Below, in pieces: positions 3,315 to 62,578 of a stretch of 64,000 bases of DNA. The stretch spans positions 8,527 through 72,526 of the forward strand of contig JACPAD010000001.1 in assembly GCA_016180955.1 (NCBI GenBank), given 5' to 3'. The DNA is from Candidatus Zambryskiibacteriota bacterium. Its GTDB lineage: Bacteria; Patescibacteriota; Minisyncoccia; Phycocordibacterales; Zambryskibacteraceae. Made by a program: the position numbers and the translations under genes. The notes under the pieces were generated by a model. The model was not told where the DNA came from, made no database searches, and saw only the letters and a list, made by a program, of their open reading frames with translations. How positions within the stretch are numbered: the stretch's first letter is position 1; the number at the start of each line of letters is the position of its first letter.

Positions 3315-3468
3315 ATTAATATTCCGCAAAAAGTGCCACTTTTGTCACTTTTTGGTAGACTCATCAATATGGCTTATGGAAACTCAACCTATCACAAATA
3401 AATATATAGGTCACTCTGGTGTGGAGTATATCTTCGAGTACTTTGACACTAAATTCGCATCTCCTATC

Positions 3469-3496
3469 ATTCTCTAATTCTCACGAATTAGAGAAT
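3469..3496. promoter_or_regulatory. Perfect 12-bp inverted repeat (ATTCTCTAATTC-TCAC-GAATTAGAGAAT), candidate ArsR operator over the arsR promoter
   Basis: Read directly. It ends 2 nt before the TGaTAGAAT extended -10 of the arsR-family gene. Confidence 0.5.
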
Positions 3497-3497
3497 G

Positions 3498-18426: not shown

Positions 18427-18436
18427 AACACACAAA

Positions 18437-18466
18437 CCCCGCCGCGTCTGACGCGGCGGGGTTTTG
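18437..18466. terminator. Bidirectional GC-rich hairpin terminator between the convergent xerC-like and lysozyme-like genes
   Basis: CCCCGCCGCG-tctga-CGCGGCGGGG followed by TTTT. Confidence 0.75.
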
Positions 18467-24307: not shown

Positions 24308-24909
24308 TGAACGCTATCGATCGGTTAGCTGAACTTTTTAAAAACTTCCCCGGCATAGGCCCGCGGCAAGCCAAGCGCTTTGTTTATTATCTTTTATCTA
24401 GAGATGGAAATTATTCTGATGAACTGATTAAAGCAATACAAAATCTCAAGCAAGAAATCGCACAGTGCAATGAATGCCAGAGACACTTTCCCTCGACAAA
24501 CTCGGGACAAGCGCTCTGTTCCATTTGCTCTGACGATACCAGAGATAGCTCAATGCTCATGGTTGTGCCGAGAGATATTGACTTGGAAGCGGTTGAGAAA
24601 TCTGGTAGTTACAAGGGTTACTATTTCGTGTTAGGCGGTGTGGTGCCGATTCTAGAGAAAGAACCAGAAAAAAGAATCAGAATCAAGGAACTAGAATCAC
24701 GAATCAAGAAAAATAAAAATATCAAAGAAATAATTCTTGCTATGAACGCCAACCAGGACGGCGAGCATACCGCCGAATTCATCAAACAAAAATATCAAGG
24801 GCTACCCTTGATATTTTCCGCGCTTGGCAGAGGTCTCTCCACTGGCATCGAGTTAGAATACGCCGACCCAGAAACCCTCAAAAACGCCTTTTTGCATCGG
24901 ACTAAATAA
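24307..24909 (+). CDS. recR: Recombination protein RecR
   Basis: FPGIGPRQAKRF HhH, CxxC...CxxC zinc finger, Toprim. The finger loop is lengthened by a PSTNSGQA insert. Confidence 0.9.
   Translation: MNAIDRLAELFKNFPGIGPRQAKRFVYYLLSRDGNYSDELIKAIQNLKQEIAQCNECQRHFPSTNSGQALCSICSDDTRDSSMLMVVPRDIDLEAVEKSGSYKGYYFVLGGVVPILEKEPEKRIRIKELESRIKKNKNIKEIILAMNANQDGEHTAEFIKQKYQGLPLIFSALGRGLSTGIELEYADPETLKNAFLHRTK
24490..24513 (+). repeat. In-frame element copy (CCCTCGACAAACTCGGGACAAGCG = PSTNSGQA) inside the recR zinc finger
   Basis: Shares the CCCTCGAC and CTCGGG.CAAGC blocks with the copB copy at 32425-32448. One nt shorter between the blocks, so the 3' half is read in another frame. Confidence 0.5.
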
Positions 24910-33330: not shown

Positions 33331-35100
33331 CTAAAAATTATCTTTTTTCAACGTTAATGGCGCCGGAGGTGCTGATTGCCTATCCGGTGGGATGTCATAG
33401 TAATTAATTAAGAATTTAGTGATGTTGAAAAAGGAATCGGTCAAAGTTTCGGAGGCGAATTGCACTCCTTTCGGATTGTAAGTGAATAGGAAAATCAAGA
33501 ATTCCGGGTCATAGCTCGGGAAGTAGCCGAAGAAGGAGTGCAGGAAGAGGTCTTCGTAATACCCTCCCCCGCCAACACGGGCAATCTGGGCCGTGCCGGT
33601 CTTAGCCGCCACACTGTAATTCTCAAGCCTCATCTGCCCGAAACGCAGAGAGCGGTCCACCACCTCCGTAAGCATCCGGGAAAGCTCGGCCGATGACTCC
33701 TGGCTAATCACCCGTTTACGCCCCTCTTCCGCGGGGTATTGAATAGTTTTTCTACCTCCTATTTTGTACCTGACTTCTTTGGCCAGATGCGGAGTAATAA
33801 GCGTGCCTCCGTTTGCCAGAGCCGATAGGGCGCGAACGGTGGCCATAGGCGTTAATGCAATACCTTGGCCGAAAGAGGCCTGAGCCAGTTCAAGACTGCG
33901 ATTACTTTTGAGATTCGAGACTAAAGAGAGACCTTCGTTGGGAAGGTCTATGTCGGTCTTGTCGCCTAAACCGAAGGACATCATGTATTTACTGAATTTT
34001 TCGTTCCCCACTCTTACCGCCACGTAGGCCGCGCCGGTGTTTAAGGACTGGTTTAGCACCTCCTGCATGGTAACGGATACGCCATGACTTTTGCCATCGT
34101 AGTTACAGAAAGTTTTGGTATTGAGCGTCATACAACCGGGGTCATTGTAAGTAGTTTTAGCAGTAATGGCACCGGTATCAAGGCCGATGGCGAAGGTTAA
34201 GGCCTTGATAATCGAGCCCATCTCGTAACGGTCTTCTACTAAAATGTTTCTGAAGATATCCGAACTCTCCGCTTTCTGCGGAGAGTTCGGGTCGAAAGTC
34301 GGCTCCAGAGCCAAGGCAGCAATTTCGCCGGTTTTAGGATTGATAACGATGCCGCCGGAGAAATCGGAAGAATATTTTTCCGTTATTTTCTTCAGCACGC
34401 TTTCAAGGAAGGCCTCGACAGATGGCTCGATGGTGGTAACGATATCTCCCTCAATCGCCTCCCTGTCCTTGACTACCGATTTGACGTTGGAAAAAATCTC
34501 GGCAAAAAAGTTGACGAAGACGTCATCACTCTCTCTTTTGAGTGTTTCCTCGTAGTAGCGCTCCAGACCATAGCGACCGGCAAGCTCATCACCGGAATAG
34601 CCAATGAGTCCGACAGCATGTGCAGCCATACTCTCGCCGGGATAAATACGCCAGCGCTCACGCGTGACAGCTAGTCCAGGAATTTTCTGCGCCTGTATCT
34701 TATCAGCCAAATCTTTTTCAAGCCTGGTGGCGAGCTCCTCATAAGGGTCGTTGAGTTTACCCGCCTTAAGCATGAAAAGCTCTTTTTCCAACGGAACAAT
34801 GGCATTGATTTGCTTATAGATACTTTCGAGGTCGCCACGGTCTCGAAGAAGATTCGGATTAGCGCTTAAGAGAAAGCCAGTTTTAATGTTTGCCGCCGGC
34901 ACGAGAGCCCCGTCTTTGGTGGAAAAAAAGATCGAACCACGGTCGAAGTAGCTGACACCCGCAACGTACTGGTGTTCCGCGCGCGCTCGAAATTGTTCGC
35001 CGGAGATGATCTGGACAAAGTAGAGTTTGCTTATGAGCACAAAAGTAAAAAGAAGCAGAAGAAGTGTCAGCAAGCGCAATCTGTTCCCGGAAGCGGACAT
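33331..35100 (-). CDS. ftsI: Penicillin-binding protein 2/3 transpeptidase (FtsI-like)
   Basis: SxxK (SIIK), SxN (SLN) and KTG (KTGTA) motifs. N-terminal TM helix. Downstream of ftsL-like in the mraZ operon. Confidence 0.9.
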   Translation of the reverse strand: MSASGNRLRLLTLLLLLFTFVLISKLYFVQIISGEQFRARAEHQYVAGVSYFDRGSIFFSTKDGALVPAANIKTGFLLSANPNLLRDRGDLESIYKQINAIVPLEKELFMLKAGKLNDPYEELATRLEKDLADKIQAQKIPGLAVTRERWRIYPGESMAAHAVGLIGYSGDELAGRYGLERYYEETLKRESDDVFVNFFAEIFSNVKSVVKDREAIEGDIVTTIEPSVEAFLESVLKKITEKYSSDFSGGIVINPKTGEIAALALEPTFDPNSPQKAESSDIFRNILVEDRYEMGSIIKALTFAIGLDTGAITAKTTYNDPGCMTLNTKTFCNYDGKSHGVSVTMQEVLNQSLNTGAAYVAVRVGNEKFSKYMMSFGLGDKTDIDLPNEGLSLVSNLKSNRSLELAQASFGQGIALTPMATVRALSALANGGTLITPHLAKEVRYKIGGRKTIQYPAEEGRKRVISQESSAELSRMLTEVVDRSLRFGQMRLENYSVAAKTGTAQIARVGGGGYYEDLFLHSFFGYFPSYDPEFLIFLFTYNPKGVQFASETLTDSFFNITKFLINYYDIPPDRQSAPPAPLTLKKDNF

Positions 35101-39548: not shown

Positions 39549-39580
39549 AAAAAAACGACCGCCCGGTGGTGGCCGGGCGG
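39549..39580 (-). terminator. GC-rich hairpin plus U-tract terminator after the 76-aa ORF
   Basis: CCGCCCGG (39559-39566) pairs with CCGGGCGG (39573-39580). A-run on the plus strand at 39549-39555. Confidence 0.7.
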
Positions 39581-39596
39581 CGGGGTGCGGGGTGGG

Positions 39597-46699: not shown

Positions 46700-46986
46700 T
46701 ACTTCTTAGCTTTTGCCCTTTTTGCCTTGAAGCGTTCGACGCGCCCGGCGATATCGAGAACTTTTTCCTGACCGGTGTAGAATGGATGGGTAGCGGAAGA
46801 GATTTCCACGCGAAAGACAGGATACTCTTTCTTATCCCCGCCCGACCGACCGTCCGGTCGGGCGGGCTTTTTAGGTCTCGCGGTCTCGGTAGTTTTGACT
46901 GTCGAAGGAATAACAAATTCTGTCCCGTCAGAGTTGTCAATAAAAAGCACCGGTCTATAATTGTCTGGGTGAATACCTTTTTTCAT
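46699..46986 (-). CDS. rpmE: 50S ribosomal protein L31 (type B-like, with about 12-aa internal insert)
   Basis: [10 protein letters not shown]... and THPFYTG. No CxxC pair. Insert [15 protein letters not shown]. Confidence 0.85.
46837..46872. repeat. Perfect 12-bp GC palindrome (CCCGCCCGACCG-accgtc-CGGTCGGGCGGG) plus T5, embedded in frame in rpmE
   Basis: Read directly. On the plus (antisense) strand it looks like an intrinsic terminator. On the coding strand it encodes [13 protein letters not shown]. Confidence 0.6.
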
Positions 46987-61770: not shown

Positions 61771-62247
61771 CTATTTTTTCTGTAGATAAGATATAAATTG
61801 CCCTATGTCAATATCATACTTTTGCGCTTCTCCCGCTGGTATTTCCAAAACATATTTTATGTTGTCTGGTGGATAGAAAGCTTTCGGATAGGTATTAGGG
61901 TTTATTAATCTTTCAATTCCTACAACCTTCCAATTCTCATCAATCCAGACGATGTCTATCGGAAAGTGCATGTTCTTCATCCAGAAGCCATACTTAGCCG
62001 GCTCATCGAAGATAAAAAGCACTCCGTGTCCGGTCTCTAAAGTCCCTTTGTCCGAAAGTCCTTGCGCTCTCTCTTCTTCAGTATCAGCAATCTCGACTTC
62101 AATATTATTTTTACCTACAACTACATAGGTCCGACCTATGTAGTTTTGATAATGTACCGGTGCTGACTTTTGTAAAAATGCATAGAAAGACCAGAGGATA
62201 ATAGAGAGACCAATAATTAAAAAGAAAGCGTTTTTCAGAGAATTCAT
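61771..62247 (-). CDS. DUF192-family secreted protein
   Basis: N-terminal TM/signal. GFWMKNMHFPIDIVWID motif. Confidence 0.7.
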   Translation of the reverse strand: MNSLKNAFFLIIGLSIILWSFYAFLQKSAPVHYQNYIGRTYVVVGKNNIEVEIADTEEERAQGLSDKGTLETGHGVLFIFDEPAKYGFWMKNMHFPIDIVWIDENWKVVGIERLINPNTYPKAFYPPDNIKYVLEIPAGEAQKYDIDIGQFISYLQKK

Positions 62248-62262
62248 TACTTGAATTATAAC

Positions 62263-62288
62263 AAAAAAGCCCCTCTCGGGGCTTTTTT
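62263..62288. terminator. Bidirectional terminator A6-GCCCC-tctc-GGGGC-T6
   Basis: Read directly. Lies downstream of the RRM gene. Confidence 0.75.
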
Positions 62289-62290
62289 GT

Positions 62291-62578
62291 TTACATCGGG
62301 CGGCGGTTCATGCCGTTGCCGTTGCGAGGCTCGAGCGGACGAGCGACATTGACAGTCAGCTTCCTTCCTTCGAAGTCCTGACCGTTGTACATCTCGATCG
62401 CCTTCTGGGCCTCTTCATCAGACGCCATTTCGACGAATCCAAAACCCTTGGACCTGCCGGTCATGCGGTCAATGATGATAGCCGTAGAAACGACGGAACC
62501 TGCTTTGGCAAATGTTTCGCCCAAAGCGGCTTCAGTCGTGGAATAAGGAATCCCTCCGACGTATAACTTGGTACTCAT
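62291..62578 (-). CDS. RRM-type RNA-binding protein
   Basis: RNP2 KLYVGG and RNP1 KGFGFVEM. Confidence 0.9.
   Translation of the reverse strand: MSTKLYVGGIPYSTTEAALGETFAKAGSVVSTAIIIDRMTGRSKGFGFVEMASDEEAQKAIEMYNGQDFEGRKLTVNVARPLEPRNGNGMNRRPM

Follow-up and report, generated by a model that had tools for sequence, protein, structure and literature searches.

A palindrome in rpmE of a Zambryskiibacteriota bacterium as a probable copy of a dispersed 30-bp repeat family of Parcubacteria

How does a GC-rich palindrome come to lie, in frame, inside a gene for a ribosomal protein? The question is raised by rpmE, the gene for ribosomal protein L31 of type B, in a 64,000-nucleotide stretch of DNA from a Candidatus Zambryskiibacteriota bacterium (contig JACPAD010000001.1, positions 8,527 to 72,526 of the forward strand; hereinafter, the window). 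The palindrome is very probably one copy of a dispersed family of 30-bp, GC-rich, imperfect palindromes of Parcubacteria that was cleanly inserted into rpmE, is read through as ten residues and owes its distribution to selfish spread. The insert coincides with the repeat, alleles without it exist, no target duplication accompanies it, its hosts are diverse, and its presence or absence varies between near-identical strains. Selfish palindromic repeats in protein-coding genes are a known kind of element; the 30-bp family itself is apparently undescribed. Searches on the sequence, on the encoded peptides and on palindromic repeats, repetitive extragenic palindromic (REP) sequences and REP-associated tyrosine transposases (RAYT) of the candidate phyla radiation (CPR) found no description of it in the portion of the literature that is searchable.

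The gene (Table 1) was recognized as L31 by Pfam (PF01197, E=8e-23), and its product is 100% identical to L31 from a Candidatus Zambryskibacteria metagenome-assembled genome (MAG). The two arms of the palindrome are 100% complementary, and on the coding strand the insert comprises exactly ten codons, in frame (CCC GCC CGA CCG GAC GGT CGG TCG GGC GGG). The GC content of the element is 87%, compared to 40-51% across the window, and the hairpin is the most stable GC-rich one in the window, with predicted RNA folding energies of -29.3 kcal/mol (sense) and -28.5 kcal/mol (antisense; z about -4.5); in the sense RNA, an alternative register of 13 pairs with a 4-nt loop is available. Thus, a perfect 12-bp GC palindrome with the loop ACCGTC followed by CTTTTT on the plus strand, forming a strong hairpin in a ribosomal protein mRNA, is present as described in an earlier note on this DNA. 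Seven distinct perfect hairpins of at least 12 bp were observed in the window versus a mean of 0.017 in simulated windows with the same first-order composition, so that chance does not account for the rpmE palindrome. No further copy or variant of the 30-mer was detected in the 64 kb, even with 8 mismatches or variable interiors allowed, which removes the likeness to the other GC hairpins of the window that the same note had proposed.

Of the 120 nearest L31 proteins, aligned with MAFFT, about 110 lack the ten codons, and when the protein is aligned to solved type-B L31 chains, the gap falls exactly at the palindrome site. The insertion point is located between two codons in a loop of the protein (..TETAxxKK|DKKEYPVF..). 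The extra stretch of about 12 amino acids noticed previously is indeed extra, and its length is to be corrected to exactly ten codons, i.e. the palindrome itself. Several homologs carry related inserts. The L31 protein P0002 has the insert PARLNSRSGG at the same site as the window copy; P0004 has a peptide identical to that of the window, three codons further downstream, so that the two rpmE insertion sites are 9 nt apart; and P0003, P0051, P0110 and P0024 contain 24-39-nt versions with the termini CCCGCCCG...CGGGCGGG or decayed forms thereof. The six L31 inserts with family termini measure 24, 30, 30, 33, 39 and 39 nt, each length being divisible by three. Two pairs of filled and empty rpmE alleles, each 95% identical at the nucleotide level and different by exactly 30 bp, define the junctions: AAGTCG|30-mer|GATAAG in P0002 vs. 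AAGTCGGATAAG in P0072, and AAGAAA|30-mer|GAGTAT in P0004 vs. AAGAAAGAGTAC in P0069. No target-site duplication was found in either pair. The DKK codons that follow the insertion in the window also follow it in P0002, and in the empty allele P0072 they abut the preceding codon. Given the two sites and the filled and empty alleles, the L31 loop appears to have been struck independently at least three times.

Other short insertions were observed in and around rpmE genes. Further family variants of 27 nt and 36 nt are present on a contig with an insert-bearing rpmE (L007:285-311 and L007:1357-1392), the first of these forming the C-terminal extension ..NLPARTRQAGK of the L31 encoded there. A different 24-nt insert, ACCCGTTCGACAAGCTCAGGGCAA (TRSTSSGQ), is located a few codons upstream in the same loop of the L31 proteins P0078 and P0036 (L009:3001-3285, L010:1185-1472); it is not palindromic and possibly represents another dispersed repeat. 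Comparison of the rpmE 3' ends in L001:1178-1501 and L145:782-1039 shows that 32 nt, CCCTACTTCGCACAAGGCTACGCAGGGCAAAG, are inserted immediately ahead of the stop codon, whereby the frame is shifted and a tail ..NPTSHKATQGKGNK is created; similar tails in P0024, P0028, P0033, P0057 and P0109 are suggestive of a second mobile short repeat.

Metagenome contigs were scanned with the degenerate pattern CCYGCCCGACYGNNNNNNCGKTCGGGCGGG, built on the 30-mer, and at least 120 contigs matched. The figures on family copies given here and below hold among the matches listed. The GC content of the matched contigs ranges from 0.31 to 0.62 (one outlier at 0.68 was set aside), many of these contigs come from groundwater small-cell fractions, and all named hosts belong to the Parcubacteria group, namely, Zambryskibacteria, Taylorbacteria, Ryanbacteria, Nomurabacteria and Paceibacterota; a taxonomy lookup placed both Zambryskibacteria and Nomurabacteria in this group (Patescibacteria/CPR). 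The family has the consensus CCCGCCCGACTGAACAGTCGTTCGGGCGGG and includes the sub-variants ACCGAACGGT and ACCGGACGGT. The window copy is of the ACCGGACGGT type; compared to the family variant CCCGCCCGACCGGACGGTCGTTCGGGCGGG, its sole difference is a synonymous replacement of CGT with CGG, i.e. of T with G at position 21. This position is T in 111 of 113 copies, which leaves a C10xT21 mismatch in the stem, and the perfect 12-bp stem of the window copy results from the T to G change, which pairs C10 with position 21. Positions 11 and 16 co-vary (T-A in 56 copies, C-G in 37), consistent with either a slipped inner stem or sub-family linkage. Directly outside the 30 nt, the information content of the flanks is about 0 bits; therefore, the repeat is a discrete, sharply bounded 30-bp unit that occurs in unrelated contexts. 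The copies are singlets, except for one tandem pair and one nested pair, and this solitary occurrence rules out a CRISPR-like array. A relaxed search of the same loci recovered about 25 more, unseeded relatives with family termini and with interiors that bring the total length to 26-47 nt; these occur about once every 30 kb.

Additional database searches delimit the family further. A scan of GTDB species representatives for the exact arms gave 13 matches, only one of them outside named high-GC lineages such as Streptomyces and Dietzia, and we read these matches as chance; the pattern carried the rare G21 arm, so that the consensus form was outside its reach. The scan of viral contigs for the 30-mer gave zero matches, leaving phage carriage without evidence, and in a protein search with concatenated motif variants, none of the 175 candidates scored. 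An Rfam search of 20 loci, most with a noncoding copy, placed the 30-mer inside no known RNA family.

Some noncoding 30-mers are part of a composite unit of about 150 nt (L087:2100-2400, and also in L025, L054, L131, L135 and L050). This unit has terminal inverted repeats, GGTAACyCyTCACACT ... AGTGTGAGGGGTTAC, and further hairpins, CCTCCTTTGTAAAGGAGG and CTCCCTTTAGAAAGGGAG; it has the look of a MITE (miniature inverted-repeat transposable element) or a bacterial interspersed mosaic element, and gave no Rfam match.

With a coding copy defined as one inside an open reading frame (ORF) of at least 150 aa, 70 of the 112 unique contexts were coding. By frame, these copies were distributed as follows: forward frame 0, 33 copies (peptide PAR(L/P)(N/D)(S/G)RSGG); forward frame 1, 12; forward frame 2, none; reverse frame 0, 12 (peptide PARTTVQSGG); reverse frame 1, 9; and reverse frame 2, 4. 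Every reading frame is occupied but the stop-bearing one, forward frame 2, in which the majority ACTGAAC variant contains TGA. Frame-0 copies are enriched for sub-variants encoding P-(N/D)-G, a segment that would be turn-forming. The hosts confirmed with Pfam include UvrD, GyrA, SecA, LepA/EF4, LeuRS, DNA polymerase I (PolA), UvrB, RF1, CarB, an Mfd-like helicase and S8; PurL, Mur ligase, PBP2, PheT, RNase R, transketolase and a GT2 glycosyltransferase were read by eye. In S8 (rpsH), the second ribosomal protein among the hosts, the 30-mer is in frame (L031:4274-4303, EVKEK|PARPNGRSGG|GKKV). In LeuRS of four contigs, the copy lies between both cysteines of a CxxC knuckle (HCEK|insert|CG); of seven aligned relatives, six lack any insert and one has a short different stretch in the knuckle, and a search with the LeuRS fragment returned mostly short fragments from mixed taxa, none with the insert. 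In GyrA (residues ~266-290 of ORF L029:3715-6276:-), a diverged 27-nt copy, CCAGCCCGACAAAATCATTCTGGCGGG, is nested in the loop of a 30-mer, with the product KPARPD-PARQNHSGG-GRSGGD. We infer translation of the element from frame and length, because the L31 inserts of 24-39 nt and the 27-nt GyrA insert are all multiples of three, the stop frame is empty and P-(N/D)-G is enriched.

The strongest case for recent movement, judging from aligned alleles, is lepA. The empty allele of the Paceibacterota MAG (HEY4480375.1, 604 aa) and the filled metagenome allele (614 aa) share 603/604 protein identity and 99.6-99.9% DNA identity over 4.4 kb, with gctcaa|CCTGCCCGACCGGACGGTCGTTCGGGCGGG|gatgat as the sole length difference. 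A Nomurabacteria glycosyltransferase shows presence and absence of the ten residues at the protein level. Target-site duplication was not found in any of the three filled/empty pairs available at the DNA level (two rpmE, one lepA); among family copies in general, flanking direct repeats were at chance level and no extension of the stem into the flanks was found. A codon bias is seen next to the element: Lys (AAA/AAG) precedes the element in 20 of 32 cases and Asp or Glu follows it in 15 of 33, and T at position -1 is avoided in all classes (5%). The bias for Lys before and Asp or Glu after the element may stem from a weak preference for AAR|G as target, from better survival of copies in charged surface loops, or from the two combined.

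These observations suggest a scenario whereby the element enters cleanly between two rpmE codons, without duplicating its target, and the ten extra residues, produced by read-through of the hairpin codons, would lengthen the L31 loop after ..TET... Survival in genes would be favored by a length divisible by three, by five of the six frames being open and by a peptide rich in Pro, Gly, Arg and Ser that a loop would plausibly tolerate. The selfish hairpin probably spreads as single-stranded DNA handled in trans. A candidate handler is a hairpin-recognizing Y1/HUH transposase (RAYT or IS200-like), with seamless insertion and, possibly, seamless excision; single-strand handling by such an enzyme is proposed because the hairpin inserts seamlessly, as in the case of REP-RAYT and IS200/IS605.

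Seven Y1/RAYT-like (Y1/HUH) genes were identified within 765 kb of element-bearing loci (Table 1), one of these 650 bp from the rpsH copy. The protein encoded in L031 matches PF01797 at 62 bits, and its best NCBIfam match is the REP-associated tyrosine transposase (REP_Tyr_transpos), at 66.5 bits, under the 80-bit cutoff. Its gene lies between rplE and rpsN of a ribosomal protein operon; on its far side, a stretch nearly identical to the rplE 3' end is repeated. Enzymes that recognize hairpins are thus frequent in the element-bearing contigs, and the Y1/HUH class is a plausible mobilizer of the 30-mer.

Table 1 Positions of the rpmE palindrome, its surroundings in the window and the Y1/RAYT-like genes of element-bearing contigs.
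Feature	Position	Strand	Remarks
rpmE, type B L31	46699..46986	minus	95 aa; intact ORF; end overlaps prfA start
Palindromic repeat copy	46837..46866	minus (coding)	30 bp; reads CCCGCCCGACCGGACGGTCGGTCGGGCGGG
Left hairpin arm	46837..46848		12 nt; CCCGCCCGACCG on the plus strand
Loop	46849..46854		6 nt in the 12-bp register; ACCGTC
Right hairpin arm	46855..46866		12 nt; CGGTCGGGCGGG on the plus strand
Host AAA AAG (Lys-Lys)	46867..46872	minus	CTTTTT on the plus strand; outside the element; upstream insertion junction
Host GAT AAG AAA (DKK)	46828..46836	minus	directly downstream of the insertion
Y1/RAYT-like gene	L031:2748-3710	minus	
Y1/RAYT-like gene	L061:4302-5045		
Y1/RAYT-like gene	L043:5356-6066		
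Y1/RAYT-like gene	L142:5915-6592		
Y1/RAYT-like gene	L067:11046-11726		
Y1/RAYT-like gene	L067:1534-2307		
Y1/RAYT-like gene	L033:8961-9620		

Several observations weigh against selfish spread of a translated element. By fixing 24 of the 30 positions, the scanning pattern itself imposes part of the apparent uniformity of the copies; the six central bases that it left free are conserved all the same. Each Y1/RAYT-like gene, in all seven cases, has its own 20-25-nt palindrome on either side (for example, AAAAGGTGTCnGACACCTTTT and CACTTGGCGGTTAAACCGCCAAGTG), none of which is the 30-mer; none of these genes lies in the window, and no mobilizing enzyme was linked to the 30-mer. A strong target motif like that of IS200/IS605 elements is absent, the signals being the AAR preference before the element and the avoidance of T at -1, and a GC-skew test for strand-specific insertion gave a weak result (46 of 72 loci, p = 0.024). 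The window contains a single copy, which is not by itself evidence of activity in this genome. Furthermore, we infer translation of the insert from frame statistics, and in an AlphaFold2 model of L31 (55-sequence alignment, pLDDT 54), the insert could not be placed on the surface.

One alternative is that the repeat benefits the host, for example, by binding a nucleoid or repair protein or by serving as a recombination signal, in which case selection would keep it uniform, and recombination or gene conversion would spread it. Consistent with this possibility, the C10xT21 mismatch is kept in nearly all copies even though T to G is synonymous in frame 0, copies matching the same degenerate pattern occur in many distinct lineages, and a cognate transposase was not found in the loci. 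However, about 62% of the copies lie in unrelated coding sequences with no positional logic, presence varies between strains that are 99.6-99.9% identical, nested and decayed copies exist, and the flanks share no homology on which gene conversion could act. Taken together, these features make a beneficial repeat unlikely. Of the suggestion in the earlier note that a palindromic element may have been domesticated in frame, the in-frame insertion is strongly supported, given that the insert is the palindrome, that close homologs exist without it and that it recurs in more than 100 unrelated places; any domestication would go beyond these observations.

The hairpin could conceivably act at the RNA level, either as a regulatory or pausing element of the mRNA or as an insertion bypassed by the ribosome, like the 'byp' GC clusters in the mitochondria of Magnusiomyces, such that the residues would be absent from the protein. 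The sense hairpin is very stable, as indicated above, and GC-cluster insertions in yeast mitochondria are bypassed in translation (PMC8811140). Bypass, however, would be indifferent to frame or length, so that read-through under protein-level selection is a better fit to the multiples of three among the L31 inserts and the nested GyrA copy, to the absence of all 70 coding copies from the stop frame of the majority variant, and to the frame-0 sub-variants that turn the peptide into P-(N/D)-G. Action at the RNA level appears very unlikely.

A still different possibility is that the hairpin was purpose-built as an intrinsic terminator protecting the rpmE-prfA-prmC operon, which corresponds to the deliberate block to antisense transcription of the earlier note. 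On the plus strand, CTTTTT comes directly after the hairpin, which received the top terminator-like score in our scan, and a weak promoter-like match is located at 46754-46783 of the same strand. However, the T-run is the complement of the host AAA AAG Lys codons, so that the terminator-like look comes from the Lys codons that adjoin the insertion; in close relatives, the majority of L31 genes are devoid of a hairpin here; a T-run lies downstream of 8 of 111 family copies, and an A-run upstream of 17 of 111; copies are found in all orientations and in unrelated genes; and no plus-strand gene or unit upstream is in need of termination. The configuration also differs from that of an intrinsic terminator in that the hairpin is in the middle of rpmE and the U-tract is on the antisense strand only, the sense stem being followed by GAUAAGAAAG and hence no terminator of rpmE. 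The hairpin may fortuitously affect antisense transcripts; nothing points to design, and we consider a dedicated terminator highly improbable. Finally, a chance palindrome, or an extension of the L31 loop in place, by slippage or quasi-palindrome correction, with no relation to the other loci, would agree with the single copy in the window and with the confinement of exact-arm GTDB matches, obtained with a G21 arm that is blind to the consensus, to high-GC chance settings, but can hardly be entertained given that the expectation for a window is about 0.017 hairpins of this kind, that the at least 120 copies matching the degenerate pattern elsewhere have unrelated flanks, and that the same ten-codon unit occupies a different site in another L31.

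Among known systems, those closest in behavior to the selfish palindrome favored here are the Rickettsia palindromic elements (RPE; Ogata et al. 2000), which are described as in-frame insertions in many unrelated genes, with a size of about 105-150 bp, encoding a conserved peptide of 30-50 residues (PMC10969869, PMC3184786); these elements are not known from outside Rickettsia. Both are selfish palindromes that occur in frame in unrelated, often essential genes of a reduced genome and are read through into added peptide (putatively so in the case of the 30-mer), with the host genes staying open. The Parcubacteria element differs in that it is 30 bp long, comprises ten codons and consists of the hairpin alone, in another phylum, and shows strain-level presence and absence at 99.6-99.9% nucleotide identity; the comparison is one of behavior and size, not of sequence.

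REPs are, by definition, extragenic, typically with a conserved GTAG-type head, and are mobilized by RAYT (Y1 HUH) transposases. The 30-mer resembles REPs and their paired form, the REPINs (doublets of two inverted REPs), in being a GC-rich imperfect palindrome in the 20-40-nt range with many copies, no target duplication and a conserved stem mismatch (PMC3116915, PMC3337134), and palindrome-flanked Y1/RAYT-like genes are present in the same contigs. In contrast to REPs, the 30-mer is mostly intragenic (70 of 112 copies in ORFs), has CCCG at its start and CGGG at its end whichever strand is read, without a GTAG-type head, and occurs as singlets rather than as REPIN doublets; furthermore, no RAYT flanked by the 30-mer was found among the loci examined.

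In the GC clusters of yeast mitochondria, terminal AG/TAG repeats are read as target duplications, and the insertions are bypassed in Magnusiomyces (PMC8811140). These clusters share with the 30-mer the short GC-rich palindrome in an AT-richer genome, in-frame insertion into genes (var1 in yeast) and nested or merged copies. The 30-mer, however, is bacterial rather than organellar and lacks target duplication, and its frame statistics favor normal translation. IS608 of the IS200/IS605 family of insertion sequences, which transpose as single strands ('peel and paste'), inserts seamlessly, has no classical terminal inverted repeats and is recognized through hairpins. Seamless insertion without duplication and, as proposed, hairpin-dependent recognition are common to this family and the 30-mer; however, the IS200/IS605 elements require a sub-terminal hairpin at each end and insert 3' of a tetra- or pentanucleotide that is fixed, whereas the 30-mer is one hairpin with a weak target preference. 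A MITE, with terminal inverted repeats, target duplication and 50-500 bp, does not describe the 30-mer, which is 30 bp long and duplicates nothing.

The window contains other hairpins as well. An intergenic GC hairpin at 39558-39581, ACCGCCCGGTGGTGGCCGGGCGGC, has termini that are faintly family-like (CCGCCCG...CGGGCGG), with no T-run after it. At 34260-34290, a perfect 13-bp palindrome, CCGAACTCTCCGC-TTTCT-GCGGAGAGTTCGG, is located in a PBP/FtsI-like ORF (33331..35100, minus) and encodes ..PNSPQKAESSD..; its length of 31 nt is not a multiple of three. The other perfect hairpins of at least 12 bp are unrelated in sequence (18434-18464, 62260-62291, 24789-24817, 3468-3497 and 62119-62145). Those at 18434-18464, between convergent ORFs, and at 62260-62291, with flanking A/T runs, look like ordinary terminators, and the one at 24789-24817 is inside an ORF of about 200 aa.

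The genomes of CPR bacteria (Patescibacteria) are regarded as streamlined, yet a 30-bp selfish hairpin appears to reside in core genes, including those for L31, S8, the LeuRS zinc knuckle, GyrA, SecA, EF4 and RF1. If confirmed, it would be, to our knowledge, the smallest in-frame palindromic invader, and, after Rickettsia, the second case in bacteria where protein loops are shaped by selfish DNA. Inserts of ten residues inflate the apparent divergence of proteins and produce indels in the marker-gene alignments used for CPR phylogeny, and the 30-mer hairpins may break assemblies; the filled and empty alleles serve as natural markers of strains. A further use of the family is as a handle on the enzyme that moves REP-like hairpins in CPR and on the effect, if any, that an mRNA hairpin of -29 kcal/mol has on translation. 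More tentatively, and with some doubt prevailing, the family might represent an active minimal class of mobile elements, i.e. a bare hairpin of 30 nt and ten codons that enters and leaves seamlessly, is adapted to coding sequence and spreads within and between Parcubacteria with a Y1/HUH enzyme acting in trans. If this is the case, the active hairpin would keep supplying loop insertions to essential proteins of ultra-small bacteria, L31 and S8 included.

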